From: an uncultured cyanobacterium
GTDB taxonomy: Bacteria; Cyanobacteriota; Cyanobacteriia; Cyanobacteriales; Nostocaceae
Reading direction: 5' to 3'
Assembly: GCA_963706595.1 (NCBI GenBank)
Contig: OY970166.1
Coordinates: forward strand, 3,264,001-3,328,000
Length of the DNA: 64,000 nucleotides
The notes below the pieces were generated by a model. That model was given only the letters and a program-made list of their open reading frames with translations. It had not been told where the DNA came from and made no database searches. Positions 29,026 through 48,482 of this stretch are shown piece after piece. Each line of letters starts with the position of its first letter. Within the stretch, counting starts at the first letter, position 1. A program made the position numbers and the translations under genes.

Positions 29026-29029
29026 GACA

Positions 29030-30826: not shown

Positions 30827-31087
30827 ATGGCTAGGATAGAAATTGATGACTTGTACCCTAGTAATCATCAACAGCTTCTCAATGAAATAACAGACAGGGA
30901 AATGCAGACAGTGGAGGGACGAGAAGGAAACACAGTCAGCACAGGAATCAATGACCTGAATGAACAATCTTTAGCCAATACATTAGAGCAAAATATCGAT
31001 AATCTTCTTTTTCACCTGAGAAACCAAATGGGTGTAGTGATTTTTGGTGCTAGAAATCAATTTAATCAAGGATTCAATTCTTTTTAA
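30827..31087 (+). CDS. Divergent precursor-like small protein (MARIEIDDLYP...VEGR)
   Basis: AGGAG RBS; leader resembles array leaders (MA.I.i.eL.P....lLnEitD....v.G). Confidence 0.55.
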   Translation: MARIEIDDLYPSNHQQLLNEITDREMQTVEGREGNTVSTGINDLNEQSLANTLEQNIDNLLFHLRNQMGVVIFGARNQFNQGFNSF

Positions 31088-31356
31088 TTAATTTTGATAT
31101 TCAAATAACCATCCATTTTGCGTTTAAATTTATTTAAATTTTGAAAATTTCTGATAAAAATCAATAGCCACGATAGCAATATTCAATGGTTTGCAAACAC
31201 CGCGAGGCTCAGATCCCCGACTTCTTGAAGAAGTCGGGGATTTTTATTTATTGAAAACTCTGGTTTCTTCAAGACACTGGGCTTTTGAAGTCTCACAATA
31301 TATTCCAGCGACTATTAAATCTACATTTTGTATGTTGCAATTATTCAAAGAAGTGT

Positions 31357-31462
31357 TATGGCGGTATGTACTTCAATGAAGTACATCATAGCCCCCTCCT
31401 CGCTTGCGGGGAGGGGGTTGGGGGTGGGGTTCTTGTATCTCACTTAACTGATAACCGCTATA
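31357..31462. mobile_element. MITE-like element with short terminal inverted repeats TATGGCGGT/ACCGCTATA enclosing a GC-rich palindrome
   Basis: Inverted ends visible; internal part matches 10510-10588. Confidence 0.6.
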
Positions 31463-31663
31463 GTCTCAATTCAAAAACATGATTTGTCAAATAAAACTGA
31501 TATTTTCAGAAAGACACAACTCTTGAATATATGTCTTTTTTAGGACGAATTTAACCTTGACTTTCTAGTTTTCAATCAATAAAAATGACAGTATCAGTTA
31601 AGCAAACACAGCTTGATTGCTTACCGATTTCATTTACCAGCGACAAATGCTTGAGGAGCTAAT

Positions 31664-31921
31664 ATGGCAAACATCAAATTGTCTAAGCTAAATGCTACTG
31701 GTTCTGAGTTATTCCTAGATTCTGAGAGTTTTCTCAATGAATTGAACGATGTCGATTCAATTACTGGTGGTAGTACCTCTGGTCAAGGTTACAACCAAGG
31801 CCACGGCTATGAAGGATTCAGTGGTATTTCAACACTAACTAAATTAGCCGAGGCATTTGTCACAGTCTATGCGATTGGTCATGTTACCGAGCTAGCCAAG
31901 TCATTCAGCCACGGATACTAA
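31664..31921 (+). CDS. Double-glycine RiPP precursor 1
   Basis: Leader MANIKLSKL.ATGSELF.DSESFLNEL.DVDSITGG; conserved core helix TLTKLAEAFVTVYAIGHVT.LAKSFS; GAGGAG RBS. Confidence 0.85.
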   Translation: MANIKLSKLNATGSELFLDSESFLNELNDVDSITGGSTSGQGYNQGHGYEGFSGISTLTKLAEAFVTVYAIGHVTELAKSFSHGY

Positions 31922-32094
31922 TGGCTTCAGGTAACTAGTAAGCTATCAGGCTCTTGCGGATTAGAGCTAATAAGTAATCTATGTGATTAACATGGACTTT
32001 CTTAATTATCAATAATCCCTGAGAGCCAACCAGCTTAAACAATTTTCTGTAAACTTGCTTAATTGCGACAAGACAAGACTGTTAGGAGTAAATC

Positions 32095-32331
32095 ATGGCG
32101 AATATCAAACTTTCTGAACTACACGCTGCTGGTTCTGAATTATTCAACGATTCTGAAAGTTTCTTGAATGAATTCAGCGATGTAGACTCCATTTCCGGTG
32201 GTGGAATTGGCGGCTACGCTGGAGGAGTTAGCAACCCAGCAACATTAATGAAGCTAGCTGAGGCATTTGTGACTGTATATGCTATTGGTCACGTGACCGT
32301 GTTAGCTAAATCATTCAGCGCAAACATTTAA
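32095..32331 (+). CDS. Double-glycine RiPP precursor 2
   Basis: Same leader ending SISGG and same C-terminal helix; AGGAG RBS. Confidence 0.87.
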   Translation: MANIKLSELHAAGSELFNDSESFLNEFSDVDSISGGGIGGYAGGVSNPATLMKLAEAFVTVYAIGHVTVLAKSFSANI

Positions 32332-32492
32332 TGGTTCTGGTTTACTACAGAGCTTGATGGTTTTCCAGGGATTAAAGATAAAAAGCTATCTATGTGAATA
32401 ACATGAGCTTTTGTTATTACCAATAATCCCTGTGGTCTAGCTAAATCTAAGCAATTTTCAGTTCATTACAACAAGTCTTTTAGGAGAAAATC

Positions 32493-32738
32493 ATGGCAAA
32501 TATTACACTGTCCGAATTAAACTCTGCTGGTTCTGAATTGTTTCAAGATTCTGAAAGTTTTTTGAATGAATTCAGCGATGTAGACTCCATCTCTGGTGGT
32601 CAAGGCTACGGTGGTGGACTAGGCGCTCAAGTTGCTGTCAGTGATCCTACGACACTGAATAAGCTCGCTGGCGCATTTGTGACTGTATATGCCATTGGTC
32701 ATGTAACTGTGTTAGCCAAGTCATTTAGTGGCATTTAA
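32493..32738 (+). CDS. Double-glycine RiPP precursor 3
   Basis: Same leader/helix architecture; AGGAG RBS. Confidence 0.87.
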   Translation: MANITLSELNSAGSELFQDSESFLNEFSDVDSISGGQGYGGGLGAQVAVSDPTTLNKLAGAFVTVYAIGHVTVLAKSFSGI

Positions 32739-32907
32739 TGACTTTGGGTAACTGCTGAAATTGATGGCTCTTTAGGAATTAAAGGTAAAAACTAATTTAT
32801 GTGATTACCAATAATTCCTAAGAGCCGACTAGACACCATCTTGATCTTCACTGAAACTAACAAGTCTTCACAAGTTCACAAGTTCACAAGTCTTTTAGGA
32901 GTACATC

Positions 32908-33159
32908 ATGGCAAATATCACTCTTTCTGAATTACACGCTGCTGGTTCTGAACTATTCAACGATTCTGAAAGTTTCTTGAATGAATTCAGCGATGTGGAT
33001 TCCATCTCTGGTGGAGCAGCAGTTGCCGCTACAGGTGCAACCTATGCCGCCAGCAATCCTTTGACACTGACCAAATTGGCTGAAGCCTTTGTGACTGTAT
33101 ATGCCATTGAACACGTAACTATCTTGGCTAAATCCTTCAGCCTAACTGGTGTTTACTAG
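32908..33159 (+). CDS. Double-glycine RiPP precursor 4
   Basis: Leader ends SISGG; core AAVAATGATYAASNPLTLTKLAEAFVTVYAIEHVTILAKSFSLTGVY. Confidence 0.87.
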   Translation: MANITLSELHAAGSELFNDSESFLNEFSDVDSISGGAAVAATGATYAASNPLTLTKLAEAFVTVYAIEHVTILAKSFSLTGVY

Positions 33160-33303
33160 CTCTAGTTAACAACTCGAATAAATGGCTCTTTGGGGATGAA
33201 AGGCATGATTTGATTACCACTTATCCCCAAGAGCCAGACAGATTCAACGCTCTCGATTTTCATTGAAACAAACAAGTCTTCACAAGTCTTTTAGGAGTAC
33301 ATC

Positions 33304-33573
33304 ATGGCTAATATCACTCTTTCTGAATTACACGCTGCTGGTTCTGAACTGTTCAACGATTCTGAAAGTTTCTTGAATGAACTCAGCGATGTTAATTCCA
33401 TCTCTGGTGGACAAATTGGCTACGCTGGTGGTGCTACCGTCGCTACAGGTGCAACCTATGCCGCCAGCAATCCTTTGTCACTGACCAAGTTGGCTGAAGC
33501 CTTTGTAACTGTATATGCCATTGAACACGTAACTATCTTGGCTAAATCCTTCAGCCTAACTGGTGTTTACTAA
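33304..33573 (+). CDS. Double-glycine RiPP precursor 5
   Basis: Paralog with extra QIGYAG-like segment after GG. Confidence 0.87.
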   Translation: MANITLSELHAAGSELFNDSESFLNELSDVNSISGGQIGYAGGATVATGATYAASNPLSLTKLAEAFVTVYAIEHVTILAKSFSLTGVY

Positions 33574-33721
33574 TCACTGTGATTAGTTACTTCAAATAAA
33601 TGGCTCTTTGGGGATGTAAGGCATGATTTGATTACCAGTAATCCCCAAGAGTTAGCCAAATTCAACGCTCTCGATTTTCACTGAAACAAACAAGTTCTCA
33701 CAAGTCTTTTAGGAGTACATC

Positions 33722-33973
33722 ATGGCTAATATCACTCTTTCTGAATTACACGCTGCTGGTTCTGAACTATTCAACGATTCTGAAAGTTTCTTGAATGAAT
33801 TCAGCGATGTAGATTCCATCTCTGGTGGAGCAGTAGTTGCCGCTACAGGTGCAACCTATGCCGCCAGCAATCCTTTCACATTGACCAAGTTAGCTGAAGC
33901 CTTTGTAACTGTATATGCCATTGAACACGTAACTATGTTGGCTAAATCCTTCAGCCTAACTGGTGTTTACTAG
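33722..33973 (+). CDS. Double-glycine RiPP precursor 6
   Basis: Near-identical to precursor 4. Confidence 0.87.
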   Translation: MANITLSELHAAGSELFNDSESFLNEFSDVDSISGGAVVAATGATYAASNPFTLTKLAEAFVTVYAIEHVTMLAKSFSLTGVY

Positions 33974-34117
33974 CTCTAGTTAACAACTCAAATAAATGGC
34001 TCTTTGGGGATTAAAGGCATGATTTGATGACCAGTAATCCCTAAGAGCCAGACAGATTCAACGCTCTCGATTTTCACTGAAATAAACAAGTCTTCACAAG
34101 TCTTTTAGGAGTACATC

Positions 34118-34369
34118 ATGGCTAATATCACTCTTTCTGAATTACACGCTGCTGGTGCTGAATTGTTCAACGATTCTGAAAGTTTCTTGAATGAATTTAG
34201 CGATGTCGATTCCATCTCTGGTGGTCAAGTTACCATCGCTACAGGTGCTACCTACGTCGCCAGCAATGCTAGTACATTGACCAAATTAGCTGAAGCTTTT
34301 GTAACTGTATATGCCATTGAACACGTAACTATCTTGGCTAAATCCTTCAGCATAAGTGGTGTTTACTAA
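34118..34369 (+). CDS. Double-glycine RiPP precursor 7
   Basis: Same architecture, ends SFSISGVY. Confidence 0.87.
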   Translation: MANITLSELHAAGAELFNDSESFLNEFSDVDSISGGQVTIATGATYVASNASTLTKLAEAFVTVYAIEHVTILAKSFSISGVY

Positions 34370-34517
34370 TCACTGTGATTAGTTACTTCAAATAAATGGC
34401 TCTTTGGGGATTAAAGGCATGATTTGATTACCAATAATCCCTAAGAGCCAGACAGATTCAACGCTCTCCATTTTCACTGAAACAAACAAGTCTTCACAAG
34501 TCTTTTAGGAGTACATC

Positions 34518-34769
34518 ATGGCTAATATAACTCTTTCTGAATTACACGCTGCTGGTTCTGAACTATTCAACGATTCTGAAAGTTTCTTGAATGAATTCAG
34601 CGATGTAGATTCCATCTCTGGTGGAGCAGCAGTTGCTGCTATAGGTGCAACCTATGCCGCCAGCAATCCTTTCACATTGACCAAGTTAGCTGAAGCTTTT
34701 GTAACTGTATATGCCATTGAACACGTAACTATCTTGGCTAAATCCTTCAGCATAAGTGGTGTTTACTAA
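34518..34769 (+). CDS. Double-glycine RiPP precursor 8
   Basis: Same architecture, ends SFSISGVY. Confidence 0.87.
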   Translation: MANITLSELHAAGSELFNDSESFLNEFSDVDSISGGAAVAAIGATYAASNPFTLTKLAEAFVTVYAIEHVTILAKSFSISGVY

Positions 34770-34917
34770 TCACTGTGATTAGTTACTTCAAATAAATGGC
34801 TCTTTGGGGATTAAAGGCATGATTTGATTACCAATAATCCCCAAGAGCCAGACAGACTCAACGTTCTTAATTTTTAAGAAAACAAATAAGTGTTCACAAG
34901 TCTTTTAGGAGTAATTC

Positions 34918-35163
34918 ATGGCAACTATCACTCTTGATCAACTATATGCTACTGGCTCTGAACTGTTCCACGATTCCGAAAGCTTTCTCAATGAACTGAG
35001 TGATGTCGATTCTAGCTCTAAGGATCAATACAACGTTGTCGGCGGCATAATTACATTCACTGCATTCGCTGGAGCATTTGTTGGTACGTATGCCATTGGT
35101 CATGCTACTTATGTGGCCAAGTCATATAGTCAACCATACTATGGGTATGGGCGGCGCTTCTAG
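34918..35163 (+). CDS. Divergent RiPP precursor 9
   Basis: Leader GSELFHDSESFLNELSDVD with GG shifted (NVVGG); core AGAFVGTYAIGHATYVAKSYS. Confidence 0.8.
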   Translation: MATITLDQLYATGSELFHDSESFLNELSDVDSSSKDQYNVVGGIITFTAFAGAFVGTYAIGHATYVAKSYSQPYYGYGRRF

Positions 35164-35617
35164 CTTTGTAGTTAACTATTAATCTTGATGGCTGTCTTGA
35201 GATTAAAGGTAAAAAGTAAGCAATTCTATCTGAGCAAAAACCTCATAATACAAAATAATGTTAAACATTCAGTTTCACATAAAATATAGAATTGCCCACT
35301 CTTATCTTAATCAGGTTTTGCATAACAAAAGCCTTACAGCCAGCCAAATTTAAAAAAATATGCTGTAATTCGATAACTAAATTGAAACTTAATTAAGACT
35401 AGGATCACAATTGGTGGATAAATCTGGCGACAATCGTCAAGATTGCTCAATTACCTAAATTAGATGAATTTAATTTAGTAGTCGTGGAAGATTGGGAATA
35501 AATGACAGTTTAACCTGAGCCAGGATAGCACATTAGTTGACGAATGATTAAGCTGACACTTACTGAAAGTAGCTAGCATTAATTCATTACTCAATATTTT
35601 GTGTGGAAATCAAGTAA

Positions 35618-35881
35618 ATGGCAAGAATTGTAATTTCTGAACTACACCCGACTAATTCCGAAAGCTTTTTAATCGAAATAACAGATATGTTTTCAATATC
35701 TGTGTATGGGGGGAATCAATATGTAATTGACTATGGATTTCATCAAATGCTGACCTTTACTTATAAGCTGATGGATTTTATGTTGTCAGCATTTGCTATC
35801 TACAGTATTGTCTCCCTTGCACATTCATTTATTACTGCGTCTGAGCTTAACTTTGCACCTGTTCAGTTTTACTCTTTCTAA
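35618..35881 (+). CDS. Divergent RiPP precursor 10
   Basis: Leader MARIVISELHP.NSESFL.EI.D....VYGG; core KLMDFMLSAFAIYSIVSLAHSF aligns with KLAEAFVTVYAIEHVTILAKSF. Confidence 0.72.
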   Translation: MARIVISELHPTNSESFLIEITDMFSISVYGGNQYVIDYGFHQMLTFTYKLMDFMLSAFAIYSIVSLAHSFITASELNFAPVQFYSF

Positions 35882-36015
35882 TTATTGAATCTAAGTTGAC
35901 ATGATGACTAAAAAAATGTTGTGTGCAATCAATGCTTGGATAGGAATCCTCTGGTTTTACAGTTTCTTGATTAACCAGGAACAAGTTTTCACATTACTGA
36001 GGAGTATTTAACGCC

Positions 36016-37197
36016 ATGCCATTTTTATTAAGCTATCAAAATGTTTTTGACTACCTAATTCCCCTGGGATTATGTACTGAAGAAGAACGTTCATTGAGCA
36101 ATATTGAACTAAAACCTGCTAAAAACTTTAACTTATTACTCAGTTTATCAGAGGATAAGAAACTGCTAGTTAAGCAAGAGCGTCACAACCGAGAAGGAAA
36201 AACCGCCGGTGAGTTTGTGCAGGAATGGCGAATTCATGAGTTTTTGCAAAGAAACCCTGAACTTAGCTATGTGCGCCCTTTGCTTTCAGAAGCAGTACAT
36301 TTTGATGCAGAAAATTCGATCATTATTTTCAACTATCTCAATAATTATCGAGATGTAGCGGATTTTTACACCAAGGAGAATATTTTTCCTACACAGGTGG
36401 CGACCAAAATTGGCACTATTCTGGCATTAATTCATCGCGTTAGTATTCAACGTCCTGAGTATCGGGAGTTCTTTGAAAATTCTCAGGATGTACCGAGTCA
36501 AGATCCACCCAAACTAAATCAGAGAATGGATCGGATTACGCCGGAAATCTTTGGTAACGTTCCGGCTGACGGGTTGAAATTCTTTGCTCTTTATCAACGT
36601 TACGATAGTTTGGGTCAGGCGATCGCACAAGTAGGTAATTCCTATACTCCTTACTGTTTGACTCATAACGACATGAAGCTAAACAACATTCTCATCTCCT
36701 TAAATTGGCAAGATGTGAATTTAAATAGCTCATCCTCAGACCAAAGCATGATTCGATTAATTGACTGGGAACGCTGTTCTTGGGGAGATCCAGCTATCGA
36801 TTTAGGCTCATTACTCGCTAGTTACTTGCAATTATGGCTGTATAGCGTAGTCGTTGGTAAAGGAATGGAAATTGAAGAGTCTTTACGTTTAGCTACAACG
36901 CCTTTGCAAACACTCCGTCCTTCACTTGCTGCACTAGTTAAAGCTTATTTAGCAGAATTCCCCCAAATCTTAGAAGATCGTCCTGATTTCCTGCAACGAG
37001 TAGTGCAGTTTTGCGGTTTAGCCTTAATTCAATCTATTCAAGCCACACTCCAGCATGAAAAAACTTTTGGTAATCCTGGTATCAGTATGCTCCAAGTTGC
37101 TAAGAGTTTATTGTGTCGTCCAGAAGCATCTATACCCACTATTTTCGGTATGGATGCGTCGGATTTGACTCCTACTCAATATTCATCTGCACGTTAA
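36016..37197 (+). CDS. Aminoglycoside-phosphotransferase-like kinase (LanK-like, putative peptide Ser/Thr kinase)
   Basis: LLVKQE, LTHNDMKLNNIL (HxDxxxxN), RLIDWE, GDPAIDLG; adjacent to HopA1-like gene. Confidence 0.85.
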   Translation: MPFLLSYQNVFDYLIPLGLCTEEERSLSNIELKPAKNFNLLLSLSEDKKLLVKQERHNREGKTAGEFVQEWRIHEFLQRNPELSYVRPLLSEAVHFDAENSIIIFNYLNNYRDVADFYTKENIFPTQVATKIGTILALIHRVSIQRPEYREFFENSQDVPSQDPPKLNQRMDRITPEIFGNVPADGLKFFALYQRYDSLGQAIAQVGNSYTPYCLTHNDMKLNNILISLNWQDVNLNSSSSDQSMIRLIDWERCSWGDPAIDLGSLLASYLQLWLYSVVVGKGMEIEESLRLATTPLQTLRPSLAALVKAYLAEFPQILEDRPDFLQRVVQFCGLALIQSIQATLQHEKTFGNPGISMLQVAKSLLCRPEASIPTIFGMDASDLTPTQYSSAR

Positions 37198-37206
37198 AGC
37201 GTTTGG

Positions 37207-37404
37207 AAGACGCGATAGAAGACGCGATAAATCGCGTGATAGAAGACGCGATAAATCGCGTCTCTACAAAATATTTGGAAGCCCCCTCATCGCTTGCGGG
37301 GAGGGGGTTGGGGGTGGGGTTCTTGTACCTCATAACACCGGGAAGACGCGATAAATCGCGTCTCTACACAATATTTGGAAGACGCGATTTATCGCGTCTC
37401 TACA
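37207..37404. repeat. Cluster of GACGCGATAAATCGCGTCTCTAC palindromes plus GC-rich repeat between the kinase and HopA1 genes
   Basis: Four to five copies of AGACGCGATAAATCGCG(TCTCTACA); related units near 30587, 39076 and 41765. Confidence 0.85.
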
Positions 37405-37444
37405 ATTTTTTTCAACACACTCTCTTATTTACAGGCCAGCTTTT

Positions 37445-38551
37445 ATGCAACTATTAGATTCGCTACAAACACAACTAGCTACTATTCCTGAGCCTTTGCA
37501 GACATCAATACAAGACATTATTCATAAAGTTGAAATTGTTTCCCATCATTGTATTAAGCACCCAAACTATAAAAGCGTAGAATTAACTGAGCAAGCAGTT
37601 TCCCGCTTTCAAAAATTGCCGTTAGACCTCCAGAACAAATATTTAGCACTCCAATTGCGTAGTTTTCTTTATGGTGTCTACTACAACGGTTCTTTGCAAG
37701 AGGAACTCAATCTCACATCAGATGGAGAGTCAAAAAATGTAGCATTGAATCGGGATTTAGAAAATAATAGCTTTTTGGGTGTAGATATCGGTTTCTATGA
37801 CCGCTTACATGAAAGTAACAGAGGTGAAGGCTACTTCAGCCACGATTGGCTGGTAATCAAAGAAGAAACAGATGGTGCTTTGGCTGTGCATAAGGGTGGT
37901 TTAACTCTGCACATTGAGCGTGAGCAACACTTGCGACCAGAAGATCAAGCTGTAACTATCGGTAGTTTAGTTCCGATCAAATTACCCAAGAATGTGGTGC
38001 AGAATGGATTCTATATGGCAGTTGGCAATGAAGCTGCTCATGGTGATCAAGAAATAGTCAGGATCTACTTTAATTTATCCCCAGACGGTGCTGTTGCTGT
38101 CATGGATGGTTTGACTACCCAACTCAATGCTCTGCCAATTTCCTTCACATTTAAAGCCCTATATAATCCTACAGATTATGGACGTTGTGACTCAGCAGTG
38201 CTTTACTTTGACAAACACAACTATGAAGTTGTTCGTCCAGTATTAGAACGGGTGTATACAGAAAATAAATCACATTTTGGCGATTCAGTGCCTTTGTTTA
38301 CTAAATTACTTGCGCCAGGGTTAGCTCTTGCGGAAGAACCAAATAGCAAGTTTACAGACCGTGAAAGTTTTGGGATGAACCGATGCCAAATTATTGCTAA
38401 TGCTTTGCTTGATGTTTGGCAGCAAGATAATGATACGCCAGCAGGTAGGTTAGAATCTATTCTGAAACATTTCTCTATGCTGGAAATTGAATTGCAACGT
38501 CCTTATCTCAATTCCCATTCTGAAGATATCTTTACTTCTTTGCAGTTTTGA
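37445..38551 (+). CDS. T3SS effector HopA1-family protein (LanY-like phospho-lyase)
   Basis: LRSFLYGVYY, GFYMAVG, VRIYFNL, F.FKAL..P..YGRCDSAVLYF, VPLFTK.LAPGLALAEEP, ESFGMNRCQIIA. Confidence 0.85.
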   Translation: MQLLDSLQTQLATIPEPLQTSIQDIIHKVEIVSHHCIKHPNYKSVELTEQAVSRFQKLPLDLQNKYLALQLRSFLYGVYYNGSLQEELNLTSDGESKNVALNRDLENNSFLGVDIGFYDRLHESNRGEGYFSHDWLVIKEETDGALAVHKGGLTLHIEREQHLRPEDQAVTIGSLVPIKLPKNVVQNGFYMAVGNEAAHGDQEIVRIYFNLSPDGAVAVMDGLTTQLNALPISFTFKALYNPTDYGRCDSAVLYFDKHNYEVVRPVLERVYTENKSHFGDSVPLFTKLLAPGLALAEEPNSKFTDRESFGMNRCQIIANALLDVWQQDNDTPAGRLESILKHFSMLEIELQRPYLNSHSEDIFTSLQF

Positions 38552-39033
38552 TATTGTATAGAACCTCACCCCAACCCTCTCCTTACTAAGGAGAGGGAGC
38601 CGGAGTTGTTTGTTTGGGAACTTCCAAGGAATAAAATACTTAATTTGTCAGGTGGGTTAGTGTGTAGGGTGTGTTGTCGCGTAGCGCAACGCACCATCTT
38701 CAATTCTCAATGCTGATATTATATATAGTTGCTTAATGTCATATTATACAATCTAGCTGCACGACAGCTTATTACAAGTTTTTCGTTTCAGTGTTAATTA
38801 CTTTTTATGTGCTTAATATATCTTTAATTGTTTCGGCTTTTACCTTGAGACACCTATCTCTGGAGATATTTTGATAACGTATCAATTAAATTGTCCTAAA
38901 TTTGGCTAACCTAAGCGTTTTTTCTCGCTTGTGATAAATCCGGGAAATGGGTTCTATATATGATATAATTAGAGATTTTGCATTAAAAAACTGGTGACTC
39001 AAAAAATTACTTGCCTAAATCCTGATTGCAACG

Positions 39034-39125
39034 CAATACTGTTCGGTTAAGCAAATTTGTGCGCCAAAAACCCTTGTAGAGACGTTCCATGGAACGTCTC
39101 TACACTCCTTAACCGAAAAGTATTG
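39034..39125. mobile_element. MITE-like element, terminal inverted repeats CAATACTGTTCGGTTAAG / CTTAACCGAAAAGTATTG, internal palindrome
   Basis: 18-bp inverted ends with 1 mismatch; internal GTAGAGACGTTCCATGGAACGTCTCTAC. Confidence 0.75.
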
Positions 39126-39488
39126 CCTCAAGGCTATATCTCAAAAAATGGCGCTGCCAGGAAGTTGCGAGCGTACAGAGTAAGATAATCGCGAGGTGCA
39201 GAAGCGAAAGGCGGTTTCTGTGATTGAGTTTTAGATTCTACGCCACTTTGAATCTACAAAACTATTTGTATATCAAGATTTGCTTACATAATAGGTCATC
39301 AAAATTTAATATGAACATCTTTTTTTTTGTTTTGGTGTGTAGGGTCAAGATTTTTGACAAACTACTAGCCCAATTCAAGTATTTGTGTGTAATCAAAAAA
39401 AGCTAAATACACGGAGTAAATTATTTCTAACTTTAGATAGAGTTAGAAAATAATTTCTTTTTGAAAAGAATTACAGAGGGGAAACTGA

Positions 39489-40319
39489 ATGCAAGCGGGA
39501 ATAGGAAAATATTTGGCAATCTTCGAGCCAGAAGTATTGCAAAATTTTTTGCAGCTAATTCGATTAAAATTTCATCTAAATTTTGGATTTGTTCTTTTAG
39601 GAGCATTAAGTTTTGCTAAACAGATAGATATTCCACTAATAGTTTCTATATTAGTGATGTACTTATCTTTTAATGTCTGTCTCTACGGTGGCATTTATAC
39701 AATGAATGCTATTACAGACCTCGAAAAAGATGCTAAACATCCACTTAAAAAAAATCGCCCCTTACCTTCAGGAAGAATTAGCATGAATACAGCCATAATC
39801 TTGGCTGTATCTTTAATTTCTTTAGGACTATTCGTGGGTTTTTTCTACTTCGGTAGAAACATTGGGTTGCTCTATATTACCTTTATTGGTGTTAACATTT
39901 TCTACTCATTTGTAGCCAGGAACGTCCCATATCTTGAATTATTTGTCAATGCAAGTACCATGCCAATTCGATTATTAATGGGTACTTTTTTAGCTGTTGA
40001 TGGTTTAGTACCGACGGTTTTGATGTTTGCAGCTTTTTGTATGGGAATTGGTTTTCTTTCTATAAGAAGAATAGTTGAGAAAGATATAAATAACTGGACA
40101 GAAGCTCGCCCTGCTTTAAAAGCTTATCAGGGAAATATCATGGTTTGGTTACAATTTATCTTTTTTGTTGGACTTCTTTTCGCATGTGAGTTTGATCCTT
40201 TTATCCACCAAGATTTTGTGGGCTACTTGCTGATGGTGATTTATTACATAGTTTTCTGTTTAGGAACTCATGTATTTCCTGCAATAAGAGGTTACTGGAC
40301 TCAATACTACGGGTATTGA
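39489..40319 (+). CDS. UbiA family prenyltransferase
   Basis: YTMNAITDLEKDAKHPLKKNRPLPSGRIS (NxxxDxxxD...RP.PSG motif); multi-TM; YS motif. Confidence 0.85.
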   Translation: MQAGIGKYLAIFEPEVLQNFLQLIRLKFHLNFGFVLLGALSFAKQIDIPLIVSILVMYLSFNVCLYGGIYTMNAITDLEKDAKHPLKKNRPLPSGRISMNTAIILAVSLISLGLFVGFFYFGRNIGLLYITFIGVNIFYSFVARNVPYLELFVNASTMPIRLLMGTFLAVDGLVPTVLMFAAFCMGIGFLSIRRIVEKDINNWTEARPALKAYQGNIMVWLQFIFFVGLLFACEFDPFIHQDFVGYLLMVIYYIVFCLGTHVFPAIRGYWTQYYGY

Positions 40320-40630
40320 TCATATTGAGTAAAAGACGTTGAAAAAGAATACATTGTTAGACTAATTTCTTCATAATTTATTAGTGTGTTAATTAAACTG
40401 ACCACTAATTAATTCTTAGCATTATCTTGGATTGAGTTAGTCTTAAATCTATATCATTCATCTACCAGTCGTACATAATTTTCGGGTTGTATCTGATTCA
40501 TGCTTTATTTTTCAATCAAGAACTGCTTCTGCTAGGACAAAAATATCTAGATTTCGATAATCAATTTGATAATTTTGTCCTAGTAGGATTTCTTTGACAA
40601 CATATTATTATCCTCAAGGGCTTGGTTAAT

Positions 40631-41299
40631 ATGAGTTTATTTATTGGCTTAAATCAAACTAAACAAATACAAAGCATTAATTTTGATAAGTTCAATGCGG
40701 TTATTTTCGATGTTGATGGGACTTTCTACAATCTGAAAAAGATGTATAGTCTAATGCGCTTGGAAATCCTCAAATACTATCTAAATCATCCTTGTGAAAT
40801 TCGGGATATCAAAATTATCATAGATTTCCTGCGGGAACGTGAACGAAATGCCTTTGAAATTGTTGATGATTTGGAGAATGCTCAATATGAATGGGCAGCC
40901 AAAGCATCAGGAGCTTCATTAGAAAAGGTTCGCGCTTTAGTACAAAAATGGATTTTTAAAGTCCCTTTGGAACATATATATACTTGCCGCTATCTACCAG
41001 TTTTGGAGTTATTTGAAAATCTCACGCAGAAAGGTATAGCTACTGGTATATTTTCAGATTATCCAGCAACAGCAAAGCTGGCTAAATTAGGTCTATCTCC
41101 TAACTGCATTGTTAGCTCAACAGATGAAAATGTTCGTCGGCTCAAGCCCGACCCTCAAGGTTTATTTGTTGCTACTGAAATTCTAGGAGTTTCAGTGAAA
41201 CAATGTTTATTTATCGGTGATCGTGATGACAGGGATGGGGAATGTGCCAGGAGAGCAGGTATGCCATATCTAATATTAGGTAAAAGCTTTCTAGTATAA
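40631..41299 (+). CDS. HAD family hydrolase/phosphatase
   Basis: FDVDGT motif I, KPDP, FIGDRDDRD motif IV. Confidence 0.9.
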   Translation: MSLFIGLNQTKQIQSINFDKFNAVIFDVDGTFYNLKKMYSLMRLEILKYYLNHPCEIRDIKIIIDFLRERERNAFEIVDDLENAQYEWAAKASGASLEKVRALVQKWIFKVPLEHIYTCRYLPVLELFENLTQKGIATGIFSDYPATAKLAKLGLSPNCIVSSTDENVRRLKPDPQGLFVATEILGVSVKQCLFIGDRDDRDGECARRAGMPYLILGKSFLV

Positions 41300-41810
41300 G
41301 CTAATGAGCTAATGCGGATTGGGCGCAATCTTAGAAACATAAATATGGCTCTTCCGTACCAAAGTGTTCAGCAAAAATTGAAGAAGCTGCCCAGCACATA
41401 TTCATGCTTAACGTTGAAGAATTAAACACTTTCTTACGCCAACGCTTAGAAAAAAATGATTGATAGATGTAGGAGGGTATCCGCCGAGGGGTAGAGTCGA
41501 GGGGAATGTTGTGACTTGAAACATAAATTGCTTCATTTTCACAAATGGGTTATTTTATTGGGAATCAGCCCTGGTAATTGAGATATATAAATTTTTCCGT
41601 CCACCTACTTAATTTTTCAGGTGGGTTAGGATCTTAGTCTTTAACCCACTATAAACTTAAGCGATCGCTTAACGAAAAACCTCACCCTGCTTTTGCTATG
41701 CGAAGGTAAGGAGAGGGATTTTTGGAATGATTGTTGTTCGGTTTTGCATGGTGACATCACGTTTGTAGAGACGTTTCATGAAACGTCTCTACATTTTTTG
41801 TCGCAGCTAT

Positions 41811-42593
41811 CTATGCTGGTTTTACCAAATTAGCTGATGCTTGAATATTTGTATTTTCTTGCAGATTGGCGACAATTTCGACAGTGGCTATTTGTTGCTG
41901 TAGCCAATTGGTAAAAAAGTCTCCCATAATTTGAAACCGCAAGTTGTCATCTAATTCTGGTTTAATTATTTCCTCAACTGCAATGATATGCGCTCCTTTG
42001 GGTGTAATGATTGGTTTAAGAATTTGTGGGGGATTAGCAGCAAAAACTGCGGCGGCGATCTCGGCTCGAAAATCAATCCGGCGGCGGATTCCCTGATAGC
42101 CACCAGAACGACGGGTTTCGGGATTTTGAATGTATTGACGAGCAATTTCTTGGAAGCTGATTTCGCCTTCTTGGAGGGCATAAAATAGTTCTAAGGCTAA
42201 ATCTTCATCATCTAAAATCACTTCATAAGTGACTGCGCCAAAATATTTTGCTTGATGAGCATAAAAGAATGGTTCGATTTGCTCTGCAAATAAATGATTG
42301 GCTAATTTGGAGGATGTGAGGTTGATTTTAGCTATTTCTTCTAAGTCATCCAGAGAAAGATGATGTTTTTCTAACCAAGACCAAGTATCTTCAGCTTTGA
42401 GTAATTGGTTAGCTAAACGAAGATTATCTGCTGCTGTTTGTAGTTCTTCTGTGCTGATTTCAATTCCTGCTTTATCGGCTGCTTCTGCAATGATTTTTTG
42501 AGTGGCGATCGCTTCTAATATGACTGGAATTTGACAAGCCATTTTTATATAGTAAATAATGTCTTCGGTTGAAACTTTTAAAATGTTTGACAT
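41811..42593 (-). CDS. PpiC-type peptidylprolyl isomerase associated with type I secretion
   Basis: ELQTAADNLR, ALELFYALQEGEISF..IARQY, GGYQG, PIITPKGAHII. Confidence 0.85.
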   Translation of the reverse strand: MSNILKVSTEDIIYYIKMACQIPVILEAIATQKIIAEAADKAGIEISTEELQTAADNLRLANQLLKAEDTWSWLEKHHLSLDDLEEIAKINLTSSKLANHLFAEQIEPFFYAHQAKYFGAVTYEVILDDEDLALELFYALQEGEISFQEIARQYIQNPETRRSGGYQGIRRRIDFRAEIAAAVFAANPPQILKPIITPKGAHIIAVEEIIKPELDDNLRFQIMGDFFTNWLQQQIATVEIVANLQENTNIQASANLVKPA

Positions 42594-42934: not shown

Positions 42935-44482
42935 CTAAAGTTCTAGACCGCCTTGTTGCAATTTCTTAAAGGGATCTAAGATAAAGTCAATGACTCGGCG
43001 CTGACGAATAACTACCTCTGCGGTGGCTGTCTGACCGGGGGTTAAATTAACGCGTTGGTTAGCAGCTTGTACATAAGGTTGATCTAGGGTGATATCTAAA
43101 TCATAAGTGTCTATACTGCCTTGGTTGCTAGACTGAGTTCTAGAATTAGGTGAAATCCAACTCACACGCCCTTCCATCACGCCATAATCTTGATAGGGAT
43201 AGGCATCAAATTTGATTTTAACTGGCATTCCTTCCTCTAAGAAACCACTGTGTTGGCTGGGTATCTGGGCTTTGAGAATCAATTTACTATCTTGAGGCGC
43301 AATTTGGGCAATGATTTGTCCTGGTTCGACTACAGGCCCTGGTTTGCGGATGGGCATCTCAAAAATTATGCCATCAATAGGCGATCGCACTACGCGCTGT
43401 TTCATCTGAATCTGCAAGGACGAAATCTGACTCTTGGTTTGAGCCATTTCTGAGTCCAGTGTACTAATTTGCGTTTCCATGTCTTTGAGTTGTTCCTGGC
43501 TTCTCAGCACTGCTAATTTACCAGCTTGAACAACGCTTTGATAGCTACTTTGCTGTTCTTGTAAACGTAGTTTTGCTTGCTCAATATCCGCGACAACTTG
43601 ACTCATAGTCGCCTGATAGCGGCTCATTTCTTCTTTTAAACGTAGTTGCGCTTGAGTGACATCAGATTGTGCTTGTAAATGCAAGCGTTGGCTGTCCTCT
43701 GCTGTTTTTTCTAATTCCACAAGTTGGATTTGCGGAATTGCACCCTGTTCGTACAATTCGCGAAAGCGTGCAACTTCGGCGACATCTCTGTTAAAACGAC
43801 TATTAACTAACTTCTCAGTAGTCTCGGTAGAATTAATATTCTGCCGAGCTTGTTCAACTAAAGCCTGTCTTTCTAACCTTTGTAAATTAGACGCACTTTG
43901 TCTCGCATCCAGGGTTTGCTGCGCCTGATTAACTTGAGACATTTTTTCTAATTCTTGGGCTTGATTTTGTTGTTCTTGGATATTGATCGCCAGCATCAAT
44001 TGGTTTTTCAGCAGCTTAAGTTGCGCTTGGCGATCGCTTAATCCTTGTAGTTGTGTTTGTCTCTGTTGCAATTCTTTTTCCAGGACATCAGAATCCAACT
44101 CCAGCAGCACCTGTCCAGCTTTAACTATTGCACCTTCTTGGACATTGACAGTTTTCACAGTCCCAGGAACTGGAATACCTAATTGATGCGTTGCTCCTTT
44201 GGGTTCTAAACGCCCTCTAGCGCTGCCGGTTTCATCAATTTTGGTGAGCATCGACCAAGGTAAAATGATCGAGGTAAATCCTACCAAAAAGTACAGCATA
44301 GAACGTGTCCAAAGTCTTGGTAAAGCATCTAGCAGTTCTTCTGTACCATAAAACCAATCATTGGTTTGGTTTTCTACCTGTGTCTGATTATCAACAACAG
44401 CACTAGAGTTTTCAACCTGGTGATTTTGGTCTTGCTGTGGTGCAGCAAGTACGGATGATAAATGTTGAGATGGGTTTGGCAT
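42935..44482 (-). CDS. HlyD family membrane-fusion protein
   Basis: TM anchor, ARGRLEP, long coiled coil, RSPIDG, KFDAYPYQDYG, LTPGQTATAEV. Confidence 0.93.
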   Translation of the reverse strand: MPNPSQHLSSVLAAPQQDQNHQVENSSAVVDNQTQVENQTNDWFYGTEELLDALPRLWTRSMLYFLVGFTSIILPWSMLTKIDETGSARGRLEPKGATHQLGIPVPGTVKTVNVQEGAIVKAGQVLLELDSDVLEKELQQRQTQLQGLSDRQAQLKLLKNQLMLAINIQEQQNQAQELEKMSQVNQAQQTLDARQSASNLQRLERQALVEQARQNINSTETTEKLVNSRFNRDVAEVARFRELYEQGAIPQIQLVELEKTAEDSQRLHLQAQSDVTQAQLRLKEEMSRYQATMSQVVADIEQAKLRLQEQQSSYQSVVQAGKLAVLRSQEQLKDMETQISTLDSEMAQTKSQISSLQIQMKQRVVRSPIDGIIFEMPIRKPGPVVEPGQIIAQIAPQDSKLILKAQIPSQHSGFLEEGMPVKIKFDAYPYQDYGVMEGRVSWISPNSRTQSSNQGSIDTYDLDITLDQPYVQAANQRVNLTPGQTATAEVVIRQRRVIDFILDPFKKLQQGGLEL

Positions 44483-44518
44483 AAGTAATTCAACAGTTTA
44501 TTTTCCAGGACTTGGGAT

Positions 44519-44777: not shown

Positions 44778-47700
44778 TCAGGCTGTTTGTGCTGTTTGAG
44801 CTAGTTGTTGCTGGTTGAGATAGAAGTAATGACCTTTTTTGGCTATTAATTCATCGTGAGTCCCGCTTTCGACGAGTAAGCCTCGATCTAAAACTAGAAT
44901 CAGGTCAGCATTGCGGACTGTGGACAGGCGATGGGCGATAATTAGGCTGGTGCGCCCTTGAAGGATGGTTTTCAGGTTATTTTGGATAATGCGCTCAGAT
45001 TCCGAATCCAGGTGGCTGGTGGCTTCGTCTAAGAGCAATAAGCGGGGATTTCCGAGTAACGCACGGGCGATCGCAATTCTTTGGCGTTGTCCACCAGATA
45101 ACATCCCCCCACCTTCACCAATTTGGGTCTCGTAGCCGGTCGGCATAAGTTTGATAAATTCATCGGCTCCTGCTAATCTTGCCGCTTCAATAATTTCCTC
45201 TAAAGTGGCTTCTGGGTGAGCAATATTGATATTTTCGCGGATAGTACCGCCAAACAAGAAGGTATCTTGATCGACAACTCCAATTTGAGAACGCAGCGAT
45301 CGCAAAGAAATACTAGTCACATCTTGGGCATCAATTAATACTTTGCCATCTGTCGGCAGATATAGTCCCAAGATCATCTTGGCGAGGGTTGTTTTTCCTG
45401 AACCACTACGCCCAACTACCGCTACAGTCTGCTCTGGGAGGATTTCAAAGCTGAGATTTTCTAGGACATTAATATCACTTTCTGGGTGATAGCGAAAAGT
45501 CACATTTTCAAACTTAATGTGTCCTTCTAATCTTGGTAAAAACTGCCGGGGGTGATGATGTAAATCTTCTTCTGGTTCTGCTTCCAGAACATCATTAATT
45601 CTTTCACTGGAAATAACTACTTCCTGGAATTGATTCCACAAAACCACTAACCTTTGAAAGGGGCGAATAACGTTGCCCAATAACATATTGAAAGCAACTA
45701 ACTGCCCAATTGTCAGTTGATTTTGAATGACTAACCATGCCCCGAACCATAGCAAACCTGTAGTTACTAACGTTTCAATGCCGGAGCTAAAAAGCTGCAT
45801 TTTGTTACTAATAATCTGCCCGGCAAAGGTCTTTTTAATCACATTATTTAATAGCTCTTCCCAATGCCAGCGCACTGTTTGTTCAATGGCCATTGAACGA
45901 ATTGAGCTAATACCTGTGAGTGATTGAATCAGATAACTATTTTCGTTGGCTGTGGCATTAAAAGCCTCACGATTAATGCGCCGAAAGAAAGGTGTCGCCA
46001 CCAGTGCCAGAATAAAGAATGGTGGGATGATGGTTAAACTTAGTAAAGCCATTGGGGCGCTATACCAAAACATTAATCCCACGTAAATAAACACTGTCAG
46101 CAAATCCAAAGTGATGGATAAAGCTTCTCCGGTGAGGAAGCGCTGAATTTTATAGTTTTCTTGGACGCGGGAAATAATATCACCAACGTAGCGGGATTCA
46201 AAAAAGGCTAAAGGTAGGCGGAAAGTGTGTTTAATAAACCCTACCAATAAGGCTACACTGATGCGGTTGGCTGTGTGATCTAGCAGATATTGGCGCAATC
46301 CATTAATGATCACACTGAATAAGCCAAAAATCAGTAACCCGAAACCCACAGCGTTTAATGTCAGGGTGCTACGTTGCACCAAAACTCGGTCTAATAGCAA
46401 CTGAGTTAATAGGGGCGTAACTAACCCAAATATCTGAATGAACACCGAAGCCATGAAGACTTCTAACAGGACTTTGGAATGAGGTTTGACTAATTCAAAC
46501 AACTGCCAAAATTGTGTACTGTTTTCTTCAGTTTCTTTAAGTTGGGCTGTGGGTTGTAATAACAACGCGTAACCAGTCCAACCAGCTTTAAATTCCTCAT
46601 GGGTGAGGGTGCGTTGACCGAAGGCGGGATCTCCCACAATCACCTGTTTTTTGCTGACTTCATAGACAACAACGTAGTGTCTGCCTTCCCAGTGCGCGAT
46701 CGCAGGTAAGGTTTGTTGTGCTAATTTATCTAAGCTGGCTTTCACCGGACGGGTAGTAAAACCGATACTTTCCGCCGCAGTTGTTAAACCCCGCAATGAT
46801 GCACCGGTGCGATTAATATTGGCTAAATCTCGCAGTCGGTTGACGCTCAAGCGCTTACCCCAATAGCGGCTAATCATCACCAAGCAAGCGGCTCCACAGT
46901 CAGCAGCGCTTTGTTGTTCATAGAACGGATACCTCTTGGTTAACCGTCCCCACCAATGTCCAGCTTTGACTGTAGGGCTAGGAAAATAGGCTTGTTTTCG
47001 CTTCTTTTTCGGTTCTGGGTCTGGTGGTGGTAACTGTCTAATCAGACTGGGGGTAATTGCTGGTGTAGGAGTGTCTTCTGTAACTTCCTGGGGATTTTGC
47101 GATAACTCGGCTAATTGCGGCCAGTATTCTAATACCAGTGGCCAATGGGCATTTTTCAGGCTATAAACCTTTGTAAGTTGAGTCGCGCGCCAATTTTCCT
47201 GCTGGGGATATACGTAGATGTTTCCCGGTGTTAATCTGCGTCCATCTGTGTGCTGTAGTTCTCCCTGATGCAATAACCACAGTTTGGTATCTTGGAATAA
47301 AGTCACTGGGAGTGAGTCGCCTTCGACGGTGTGGCGCTCAAATAAAGTCAAGGCTTTGAGTATTTCTTCTACAGACCCATTATGTGGCACTAGGGACGTT
47401 TGACAACATAGTAACAGTAAATCCCACAATTCGGCACGTTGTTTGAGGCGATCGCGAATACTCGGATGTTTGCGAATTACCTCTTGTAAAGATGCTTGCG
47501 GAAAATAAGCCAGCTTTAACTTCACAGAAGCTCTCGCCACATAAGGGCTAAATTCTTCTTCTGTAAATAAAGTCAGTTCGCCAAATGATGCTCCTGTTGT
47601 CAGGGTGGTAATTAAGTTATTCGAGCCATCTAAAAGCCTGACTTTACCCCCCAGGACGAGATAGATCCCATTCGGTGCGTTTGCTGCTTGCCAAAATTGC

Positions 47701-47828
47701 TTGGCTACAGGTGGTTCGACAATTTCTACCCCAATCAAACATCTTTCAATTTCTTGCTCTGATAACGGCTCACCCAGGCTGTGGATAAGTTGTTGCGCTA
47801 AGTATTCCGGGGAAAATGCTGATGCCAT
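44778..47828 (-). CDS. Peptidase-containing ABC transporter (cNMP-binding + C39 peptidase + TM + ATPase)
   Basis: QQSAADCGAACL (catalytic Cys), AHWEGRHYVV (His), VGDPA (Asp); GRSGSGKTT, LSGGQRQR, LDEAT; N-terminal GASFGE cNMP-like domain. Confidence 0.94.
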   Translation of the reverse strand: MASAFSPEYLAQQLIHSLGEPLSEQEIERCLIGVEIVEPPVAKQFWQAANAPNGIYLVLGGKVRLLDGSNNLITTLTTGASFGELTLFTEEEFSPYVARASVKLKLAYFPQASLQEVIRKHPSIRDRLKQRAELWDLLLLCCQTSLVPHNGSVEEILKALTLFERHTVEGDSLPVTLFQDTKLWLLHQGELQHTDGRRLTPGNIYVYPQQENWRATQLTKVYSLKNAHWPLVLEYWPQLAELSQNPQEVTEDTPTPAITPSLIRQLPPPDPEPKKKRKQAYFPSPTVKAGHWWGRLTKRYPFYEQQSAADCGAACLVMISRYWGKRLSVNRLRDLANINRTGASLRGLTTAAESIGFTTRPVKASLDKLAQQTLPAIAHWEGRHYVVVYEVSKKQVIVGDPAFGQRTLTHEEFKAGWTGYALLLQPTAQLKETEENSTQFWQLFELVKPHSKVLLEVFMASVFIQIFGLVTPLLTQLLLDRVLVQRSTLTLNAVGFGLLIFGLFSVIINGLRQYLLDHTANRISVALLVGFIKHTFRLPLAFFESRYVGDIISRVQENYKIQRFLTGEALSITLDLLTVFIYVGLMFWYSAPMALLSLTIIPPFFILALVATPFFRRINREAFNATANENSYLIQSLTGISSIRSMAIEQTVRWHWEELLNNVIKKTFAGQIISNKMQLFSSGIETLVTTGLLWFGAWLVIQNQLTIGQLVAFNMLLGNVIRPFQRLVVLWNQFQEVVISSERINDVLEAEPEEDLHHHPRQFLPRLEGHIKFENVTFRYHPESDINVLENLSFEILPEQTVAVVGRSGSGKTTLAKMILGLYLPTDGKVLIDAQDVTSISLRSLRSQIGVVDQDTFLFGGTIRENINIAHPEATLEEIIEAARLAGADEFIKLMPTGYETQIGEGGGMLSGGQRQRIAIARALLGNPRLLLLDEATSHLDSESERIIQNNLKTILQGRTSLIIAHRLSTVRNADLILVLDRGLLVESGTHDELIAKKGHYFYLNQQQLAQTAQTA

Positions 47829-47849
47829 TTTTTGACCTCCAAGACAGAA

Positions 47850-48482
47850 TTATTTATTGGTCTGAATCAGATTTAATGACCAATTAAAATTAGGTTCGGA
47901 GTGAGATTGCAAATCGCCAATTCTAATTCCAGCATCCATTCGGCTTCGCTCATGACAAGCCTTGGTTTGGTCAGTTTCTGGTGGCTGGGAACTTTTCCGT
48001 TTAGTGGATAGTCCCATTTGTTTAAGTAGGCGATTAATGTGGCGATCGCTAATTTGGATGTTAAATTCGTTAGCTAAATGTTTGCTTAACCATTGGGCTG
48101 TCCAATAAGTAAATGCATAACCATAATCACGAGGGCTATGGCTGACCAACTCTTTCAAACGATCCAGATATTGATCATTCACAATTTTCGGTCTCCCAAT
48201 AGGTCGCTCATTCCACTTGTGCGCTAAACCTGCTTCCGCTAAACCAATCCAGTAACGCGCCATTTCCTGAGAACAACCGATAGTTTCACAGATTTGACTT
48301 TGAGATTTACCCACATCGGCTAATAACATAATTTCAATGCGCCGCCGATATTCTGGCTGTAAATCAGTTTGTAAGCTTTTCAGCAATGCCTTCTTTTGAA
48401 AAGAGGTTAAAAACTTACCTTCTTGAAAATTTTGGATGTTGTAATTTTCCAAGTTTTCGCTTTGACTAAGAGAGTGTGACAT
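47850..48482 (-). CDS. Helix-turn-helix protein (IS630-like HTH domains, no DDE), probable regulator
   Basis: RRRIEIMLL, GCSQEMARYW, GRPK, WTAQWLSKHL...ISDRHINRLLKQMGL; first gene of the secretion operon. Confidence 0.75.
   Translation of the reverse strand: MSHSLSQSENLENYNIQNFQEGKFLTSFQKKALLKSLQTDLQPEYRRRIEIMLLADVGKSQSQICETIGCSQEMARYWIGLAEAGLAHKWNERPIGRPKIVNDQYLDRLKELVSHSPRDYGYAFTYWTAQWLSKHLANEFNIQISDRHINRLLKQMGLSTKRKSSQPPETDQTKACHERSRMDAGIRIGDLQSHSEPNFNWSLNLIQTNK

Follow-up and report, generated by a model that had tools for sequence, protein, structure and literature searches.

The precursor array and its adjoining enzymes

The gene cluster described here occupies 30.8-48.5 kb of a 64,000-nucleotide stretch of DNA (hereafter the window) from contig OY970166.1 of assembly GCA_963706595.1, whose host is a Nodularia-type cyanobacterium. 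A sequence-only reading of the window had presented the cluster as a system for peptides made on the ribosome and modified after translation (RiPPs), in which a tandem array of Cys-free precursors stands beside a kinase/HopA1 pair and faces a dedicated export operon, and had implied that it might be a new RiPP class. All genes that it named were recovered in place, and the functions and architecture it assigned to them hold in matches to Pfam and NCBIfam. The precursor genes and the two enzyme genes next to them are the following:

31664-31921, 32095-32331, 32493-32738, 32908-33159, 33304-33573, 33722-33973, 34118-34369 and 34518-34769, + strand: eight typical precursors
34918..35163, + strand: ninth precursor, with KD where GG is expected, a GG seven residues further on, a core end AKSYS and a basic tail GRRF
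35618..35881, + strand: tenth, terminal-type precursor, with a 32-residue leader without the GSELFx segment and a distinct hydrophobic core, adjoining the kinase
30824..31087, + strand: doubtful eleventh open reading frame, with a leader-like N terminus, no GG and an unrelated C terminus
36016..37197, + strand: APH-fold Ser/Thr kinase, LanK/LxmK-like (PF01636, 1e-9; NCBIfam LxmK, 5e-23)
37445..38551, + strand: HopA1-family phospho-Ser/Thr lyase, LanY/LxmY-like (PF17914, 4.9e-60)

Ten open reading frames (ORFs) of 78-89 residues on the + strand between 31664 and 35881 are members of a single family, as a hidden Markov model (HMM) built from them retrieved all ten in a genome-wide search with E-values of 1e-25 to 1e-45. 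The sequence-only reading had counted 10-11 precursors; ten are borne out, but the ORF at 30824-31087 gave an E-value of 4.8 with the family HMM and is not a significant match. None of the precursors matches any Pfam family, PF10439 included, at E-values up to 0.01. The eight typical precursors are built of a 36-residue acidic leader that ends in double glycine (GG) and carries a net charge of -4 to -7, a hypervariable linker and a conserved core with AKSFS at its end. The acidic GG leader of about 36 residues that had been ascribed to the array is therefore a property of these eight, but not of the ninth precursor, with its KD and later GG, or of the tenth, with its leader of 32 residues. Orthologues of the ninth precursor with the same features occur in two other Nodularia records (Eyles 2021 supplement). 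The cores measure 38-55 residues, with 6-12 Ser and Thr each (exactly 10 in precursor 4, for which about 10 had been estimated), 1-3 His and 1-2 Lys. As the earlier reading had it, Cys is absent from all ten precursors.

Comparison of the eight tandem units at the nucleotide level gave identities of 0.82-0.91 for the leader, 0.06-0.47 for the ~16 codons that open the core, 0.70-0.89 for the C-terminal part of the core and 0.2-0.7 between genes; the low identity at the start of the core, with high identity on either side, marks a hypervariable linker between two constrained parts. When 20 typical precursors from several genera were aligned, the only invariant core residues were K75, S76 and S78, which form the motif K-S-[FY]-S, while K56, E59, I67, L73 and A74 were nearly invariant. 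The conserved motif of the leader is G-S-E-L-F-x-D-S-E-S-F-L-N-E, and leader residues S20 and S22 are invariant in these 20 sequences as well as in 15 precursors of the source genome. An amphipathic-helix character of the cores was considered and rejected, the best 18-residue hydrophobic moment being no higher than that of shuffled sequences (0.08-0.73 of the shuffles reach the value). A fold model of one precursor, with helices at 6-33 and 51-78, was not used as evidence owing to its low confidence (pLDDT, the predicted value of the local distance difference test, of 56).

At the 50% identity level, a search with the precursor profile yields 1045 representatives (E <= 0.001), many of which match in the leader only. 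For a closer comparison we used 20 related loci, hand-chosen around HopA1 genes with a precursor nearby and mostly on long contigs, so that the presence of precursors in them is given by construction. Thirteen of the 20 resemble the window in having one to six typical precursors and exactly one of the terminal type, which lies nearest to the kinase. Under the cleavage rule, two of the 71 cores from these loci contain Cys, both of them outside Nostocaceae and with S/T...C patterns suiting lanthionine; in a third Cys-bearing ORF, the single Cys follows a site that is not GG. In the best 150 representatives of the family, 145 cores were recognised, and 32 of them contain Cys. Cys-free cores are the norm of the precursor family and not an oddity of this locus.

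HMM searches upheld the earlier calls of an APH-fold kinase and a HopA1-family protein, with the E-values given above. Residues K53, H217, D219, N224 and D250 of the kinase are invariant in 19 sequences. The AlphaFold2 model of the lyase (pLDDT 84.9) has as its best fold match in the PDB LxmY, chain B of 9dk1/2/3 (E 2e-16; target-normalised template modelling score 0.79), at a sequence identity of about 20%, and a profile of 19 cyanobacterial lyase homologues finds 9dk1_B among PDB sequences at 1e-11. Lyase residues R206, K237, R247 and Y254 align to identical residues in 9dk1_B. Their spacing of 31, 10 and 7 compares with 32, 10 and 7 for R187, K219, R229 and Y236 of CaoY, residues shown by mutagenesis to matter (PMC9486802, in the part of the paper that is accessible). 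Both enzymes look intact.

Modelled leader binding and the proposed pathway

Kinase, lyase and precursor were modelled together as a complex. The model reached a score of 0.68, compared with 0.00 for the best of three controls; this mark is attained by 116 of 157 solved complexes and by two of 215 mismatched pairs, although the input used here, an own alignment for each protein, lies outside the calibration of the tool. Separate runs agreed in at least 34% of the contacts, with a partner pLDDT of at least 41. Confident contacts place leader residues 10-29 on the C-terminal lobe of the kinase, at residues 188-199, 280-301 and 352-378. The same binding mode has been proposed from AlphaFold models for CaoA-CaoK (PMC9486802, accessible part) and for LxmA-LxmK (review PMC12141560). 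No peptide-bound complex is present among the solved PDB matches of the lyase model, the lyase profile or the kinase profile, and our complex model supports binding of the leader to the kinase without showing it.

The position of the leader also bears on the idea that its conserved serines S14, S20 and S22 are themselves the substrates of the kinase, phosphorylation or elimination at these sites serving to regulate export. The invariance of S20 and S22 noted above would suit such a role, but the model sets them on the C-lobe surface formed by the three contact segments, and K53, H217, D219, N224 and D250, the invariant catalytic residues, are all outside the reported list of leader contacts. 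Characterised homologues recognise their substrate by the leader and modify the core (PMC9486802, as far as the text is available; PMC12141560). We regard regulation through the leader serines as very improbable.

The terminal-type precursor, which has counterparts in 13 of the 20 related loci, is without leader residues 13-18, a segment central to the modelled contact. Such precursors may have another way of binding the kinase, or may escape modification.

Genes for ring formation were sought in and around the cluster. No member of the LanC, YcaO or flavoprotein families was detected among the ORFs of at least 90 residues at 15.7-64 kb of the window, in agreement with the claim of the sequence-only reading that LanC, flavin decarboxylase and YcaO are missing from the locus, and the cluster contains no second kinase-like gene. 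Genome-wide, LanC gave 0 matches in a search in which the control genomes were silent too, YcaO gave 0 matches with the control positive in 5 of 14 genomes, and flavoproteins were matched only at 0.98 and 3.86 Mb, more than 500 kb from the cluster. Class V lanthipeptides employ LanX and LanD (subgroup Va) or LanC (subgroup Vb) to form their rings (PMC12291118). The locus has in common with them a stand-alone APH-fold kinase and a HopA1-fold lyase with the Arg/Lys/Arg/Tyr set, but there is no Cys in its ten precursors or in five orphan precursors elsewhere in the genome, and neither LanX with LanD nor LanC is found among the cluster genes; without Cys and without a cyclase, it is by definition not a lanthipeptide locus. 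Nor does it have the YcaO/TfuA and Cys decarboxylase of the thioamitides, YcaO being absent from the genome and flavoproteins confined to distant loci. The GG leader and C39 exporter would match an unmodified class II double-glycine bacteriocin, but a conserved kinase/lyase pair lies adjacent.

The genes of the opposite strand and the upstream M16 pair are listed below, with their occurrence in the 20 related loci:

41811..42593, - strand: PpiC/SurA-like rotamase (PF00639; TIGR04500 'peptide maturation system', 1.4e-19, below cut-off); PpiC in 17/20 loci
42935..44482, - strand: HlyD-type periplasmic adaptor (PF13437; TIGR01843, 1.9e-60); HlyD and long C39-ABC transporter in 12/20 loci
44778..47828, - strand: long-type exporter of 1016 residues, with cyclic nucleotide (cNMP)-binding (PF00027), C39 (PF03412), ATP-binding cassette (ABC) membrane (PF00664) and ATPase (PF00005) domains
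47850..48482, - strand: helix-turn-helix (HTH) protein (PF13565; NF033545, 6e-23, profile positions 1-134 of 299); HTH in 13/20 loci
27412..29025, + strand: M16 peptidase subunit (PF00675, PF05193), with an HFLEH zinc motif at residue 117 and an N-terminal hydrophobic signal-like segment; M16 pair in 10/20 loci, next to the precursors
28997..30577, + strand: second M16-family subunit (PF05193, PF00675), with no HxxEH motif

The operon of HTH, C39-ABC, HlyD and PpiC genes on the opposite strand, as first described, is present with all its families and with the Cys, His and Asp of the peptidase domain. The transporter carries Cys311, His384 and Asp400, which we take to be the C39 catalytic triad. 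The PpiC-like protein has no signal-like segment in its first 40 residues, so that a role in the cytoplasm, in maturation or as a chaperone, is probable. The HTH protein is similar to the N-terminal half of an IS630 transposase; since it is kept beside the exporter, it is probably a regulator. Directly upstream of the precursors lies the M16 pair, which did not figure in the earlier description; the first subunit is possibly an extracytoplasmic trimming protease, and the second, which lacks the zinc motif, is its probable non-catalytic partner.

We consider it likely that the locus belongs to a catalogued cyanobacterial HopA1/phosphotransferase family of RiPP clusters, in which leader-guided dehydration would be followed by export. 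The ten ribosomal precursors, each with its acidic leader of the double-glycine type, would dock through leader residues 10-29 on the C-lobe of the APH-fold kinase, which, in a heterodimer with the HopA1-like lyase, would phosphorylate Ser and Thr in the core. The lyase would then remove the phosphate to leave dehydroalanine (Dha) or dehydrobutyrine (Dhb), and the invariant K-S-[FY]-S that closes the conserved core is the best candidate site. In the absence of both Cys and a cyclase, thioether rings would not form and the products would probably be linear dehydropeptides of ~40-50 residues. The cNMP-gated C39-ABC transporter would cleave after GG and export the peptide together with HlyD, with possible help in folding or trimming from the PpiC-like protein and the M16 pair. 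Linear, exported dehydropeptides are the most likely products. Homology, fold, synteny and the complex model give good support to kinase/lyase dehydration with subsequent C39-ABC export, but do not demonstrate it; to this extent the sequence-only reading stands, with its gene functions, its architecture and its absence of Cys and cyclase, and dehydration with export is the best-supported mechanism.

The composition of the cores raises the further question of whether dehydration might be an intermediate, the Dha and Dhb residues being captured by Lys or His within or between peptides to give cross-links of the lysinoalanine or histidinoalanine type. Each core in the window offers 1-3 His and 1-2 Lys, Lys75 stands invariant beside Ser76 and Ser78 in the 20 typical precursors and Lys56 nearly so, and no Cys would compete for the dehydro residues. 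However, none of the cluster genes was recognised as encoding a known cross-linking enzyme and His is not conserved across genera, and we hold such cross-linking to be a rather slim prospect.

Distribution, orphan precursors and a second enzyme pair

The precursor profile and HopA1 were searched in a sample of 401 cyanobacterial genomes. Precursors were found in 50 genomes and HopA1 in 61, and every one of the 50 precursor genomes was positive for HopA1; the sequence-only reading had made such co-occurrence in other genomes a test of its proposal, and on this point it is sustained. In the 45 Nostocaceae genomes of the sample, HopA1 is universal (45/45) and precursors occur in 39. In 37 of the 38 genomes with listed coordinates, HopA1 has a precursor within 8 kb, at a distance of 0.7-5.4 kb, the one exception lying at a contig edge, and the kinase adjoins HopA1 in 20/20 of the related loci. 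Two loci, L053 and L055, whose lyases belong to the same clade as that of the window, carry in their cores the S/T...C motifs that are typical of lanthionine rings, which argues that this lyase clade makes dehydro residues.

RNA-library contigs of related strains cover 31501-32912, a single contig of 3.5 kb covers 34790-38391, and metatranscriptome pieces with 0-1 differences lie over 31723-32363. RNA-library contigs can include DNA, and these come from relatives that are 90-99% alike; they are no proof of single transcripts, and stretches without cover, such as 33056-33339, support no conclusion.

On either side of the precursor-enzyme block, 31068-31635 and 38452-38735 reach an RNA-contig depth of up to ~11,000 and are joined in contigs to each other or to unrelated sequence. 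This very high depth and the joining suggest that a dispersed, highly represented repeat or small RNA flanks the block.

Members of the precursor family were also found away from the cluster in the source genome. Four tandem orphan precursors lie at 1.417 Mb (G000:C1:1416864-1418201; L003 8876-10204) and a single one at 5.213 Mb (G000:C1:5213128-5213382; L004 9125-9382), all with intact leaders, K-S-F-S cores and 0 Cys. Matching sets of orphan precursors occur in a genome of the same genus (G318).

The source genome further encodes a second kinase/HopA1 pair at 5.461 Mb (G000:C1:5461101-5463424; L005 10062-12424, - strand), beside phylloquinone (men) genes. This pair is syntenic in 17 further Nostocaceae loci (L056-L069, L072-L074), in the order AAA-like gene, small membrane protein, kinase, lyase, thioesterase and menE-menC-menA-menF, with the thioesterase adjacent in 12/17 and men genes in 11/17. 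Within ~8 kb of the second pair, 0/17 loci hold a match to the precursor family, and a conserved small ORF upstream, sought as a hidden precursor, was not found. The six Nostocaceae genomes without precursors have only one HopA1 match each. In a tree of 42 lyases, the 24 that are precursor-linked and the 18 that are unlinked split on one branch with a support of 100/99. A second, precursor-less kinase/lyase clade is present in every sampled Nostocaceae genome.

A patch of DNA ~150-250 nucleotides upstream of the second-type kinase (L057-L072) is conserved, but its frame shifts from locus to locus, so that it is no conserved ORF. A regulatory element or a small RNA may lie there.

These findings have to be set against the possibility that the peptides are exported unmodified, either like class II bacteriocins or as matrix or signalling peptides of the EbfG kind, the leader serving C39 only and the enzyme pair acting elsewhere, for instance on a protein. 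The orphan precursors have no such enzymes nearby, two of the best 150 family representatives have cores free of Ser and Thr, and the precursor-less clade means that pairs of this kind need not act on precursor peptides; in addition, GG peptides and C39 exporters serve biofilm formation in Synechococcus elongatus (PMC4997328 and PMC12267927, both accessible in part). Nevertheless, in 37 of the 38 genomes that could be checked the kinase-lyase pair adjoins precursors, the precursor-linked lyases are one clade, and the complex model, whose controls scored 0.00, sets the most conserved segment of the leader on the kinase, a feature needless for a pure export signal. Homologous kinase/lyase pairs, moreover, dehydrate peptides in vitro (PMC9486802, accessible part). 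Export without modification appears improbable to us.

Several points weigh against the proposed pathway of core dehydration and export. The five orphan precursors are far from kinase, lyase and exporter genes. Beyond K-S-[FY]-S, no core Ser or Thr is conserved, the exact KS[FY]S motif is present in 12 of the best 150 family representatives and varies in distant members, and the two Ser/Thr-free cores imply that the leader need not always go with dehydration. The kinase scores 81.7 bits with the LxmK model, for which the cut-off is 315, and its profile misses LxmK among PDB sequences at E 0.001, with weak APH-like matches only. The complex model, besides its uncalibrated input, leaves the partner's own fold uncertain, the RNA-library contigs carry the reservations given above, and the searchable literature holds no mass or chemical data for family members.

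Neighbouring genes and relation to catalogued clusters

Between the HopA1 and PpiC genes lie two genes that were absent from the earlier description:

39489..40319: UbiA prenyltransferase (Pfam match)
40622..41299: HAD hydrolase (Pfam match)
39075..41793, + strand: local insertion of UbiA and HAD, bounded by 30-nucleotide palindromes at 39075-39104 and 41764-41793

The two palindromes are identical in 28 of 30 positions. As homologues of UbiA and HAD occur in 0/20 related loci and near-identical palindromes flank them, we rejected both genes as cluster members and regard them as a local insertion. A third member of this family of ~30-nucleotide palindromic repeats is at 30586-30611 of the window, and the 14-nucleotide arm of the palindrome has 61 copies on the + strand of the genome at no more than one mismatch. 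An S8 subtilase at 49908-51422, next to a second HlyD-family gene at 51468-52964 (- strand), was likewise rejected as a member of the cluster, having a homologue in 0/20 related loci. An S8-domain protein defines the 'group VI' clusters of Wang 2011 (PMC3140520, in the part available). A scan for promoters and terminators was uninformative: it gave 40 sites resembling promoters and 17 resembling terminators, where shuffled sequence gave means of 48.8 and 13.9.

At 18180-25938 (- strand), the window holds a separate RiPP-like neighbourhood with PqqD, two glycosyltransferases, an HPr-kinase-C-like protein, a transglutaminase-core protein, split ABC transporter genes and an NTP_transf_5 nucleotidyltransferase. 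It presumably resembles lasso-peptide clusters with an HPr-type kinase.

The kind of cluster found here is not new, having been listed in the genome-mining papers of 2011 (Wang) and 2021 (Eyles). In this respect the sequence-only reading does not stand, since the RiPP class whose novelty it had implied corresponds to Family 1A of Eyles 2021 and fits the text on group II of Wang 2011, as far as that paper is accessible. 'Family 1A' of Eyles, Vior, Lacret and Truman unites 570 peptides in 183 clusters, all of them cyanobacterial, with GG leaders, variable cores and multiple precursors (PMC8153245); the window locus is of the same kind, with several non-identical GG-leader precursors beside a HopA1/phosphotransferase pair and cores without conserved Cys. 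Supplement file 2 of that study (Network 1) contains an orthologous cluster of ten peptides beside HopA1 from Nodularia spumigena UHCC 0039, near-identical in type to those of the window, the basic-tail and terminal types included. An 18-residue stretch of precursor 4, the one peptide of the ten for which we searched, is absent from the supplement table. Whereas cores were described as highly variable in Eyles (PMC8153245), those of Nostocaceae are conserved here and end in K-S-[FY]-S.

'Group II' of Wang, Fewer and Sivonen 2011 is characterised by a long-type CAP_ED and C39 ABC transporter, HlyD, a SurA-like rotamase and M16, with several precursors per cluster and modification genes without assigned function, and Nodularia spumigena CCY9414 was credited with three of them (PMC3140520, accessible part). 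The locus, with its own CAP_ED and C39 transporter, HlyD, SurA-like rotamase, M16 pair and additional modification genes, fits group II in a comparison made with the text description. Kinase/lyase chemistry went unrecognised there, the words 'kinase' and 'phosphotransferase' occurring 0 times in the accessible text.

Among characterised systems, the LxmK-LxmY pair of lexapeptide (PDB 9dk1-3) and the CaoK-CaoY pair of cacaoidin are like the locus in their stand-alone APH-fold kinase and HopA1-fold lyase, in the lyase Arg/Lys/Arg/Tyr and in a leader modelled on the kinase C-lobe. Unlike them, the locus has no core Cys and no LanX, LanD or LanC gene, its double-glycine leader is paired with a C39-ABC exporter, and its kinase is below the LxmK family cut-off. 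EbfG/PteB of S. elongatus PCC 7942 is similar in its tandem double-glycine peptides, which are secreted, and in its C39-ABC and HlyD proteins, but the available text mentions no kinase or lyase (PMC12267927). The closest relative of EbfG/PteB in Anabaena, alr5147/alr5148, belongs to Wang group III, with a short transporter that lacks the cNMP domain (PMC12267927, PMC3140520, accessible parts). Cyanobacterial 'type-B' LanA candidates were reported by Liang et al. 2022 after filtering for Cys, according to the available part of that work. No characterised product of any family member was found in the literature, in a search whose scope excluded most subscription journals.

In a broader and, as a whole, unlikely reading, these observations would combine into a structurally new class of Cys-free RiPPs of ~40-50 residues, in which the Dha of K-S-[FY]-S is the functional group. 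It might be captured by Lys or His to form a non-thioether cross-link, or serve as an electrophile that ties the peptides together or to an extracellular target. Each locus would produce a two-component set of several typical peptides and one terminal-type peptide, and the latter may stay unmodified because six residues of the modelled kinase-binding leader segment are missing from it. The second enzyme pair would modify the orphan precursors or a protein.

The locus adds one member to a catalogued kind, and at the level of sequence the finding is not new. The details added here are the K-S-[FY]-S motif, the sets of typical and terminal-type precursors, the UbiA/HAD insertion and the second, precursor-less clade. 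As one more member of a catalogued kind, the locus has its discovery value in experiment and not in its sequence. The family is large, with its 1045 precursor representatives and its presence in 39 of 45 sampled Nostocaceae genomes, and a Cys-free substrate for a lanthipeptide-type dehydratase raises the question of what purpose dehydro-amino acids would serve without a ring. This open chemistry keeps a moderate interest in the locus, which is a practical test case, offering ten natural substrate variants, intact-looking enzymes, a candidate modification site in K-S-[FY]-S and a candidate recognition segment in leader residues 10-29.

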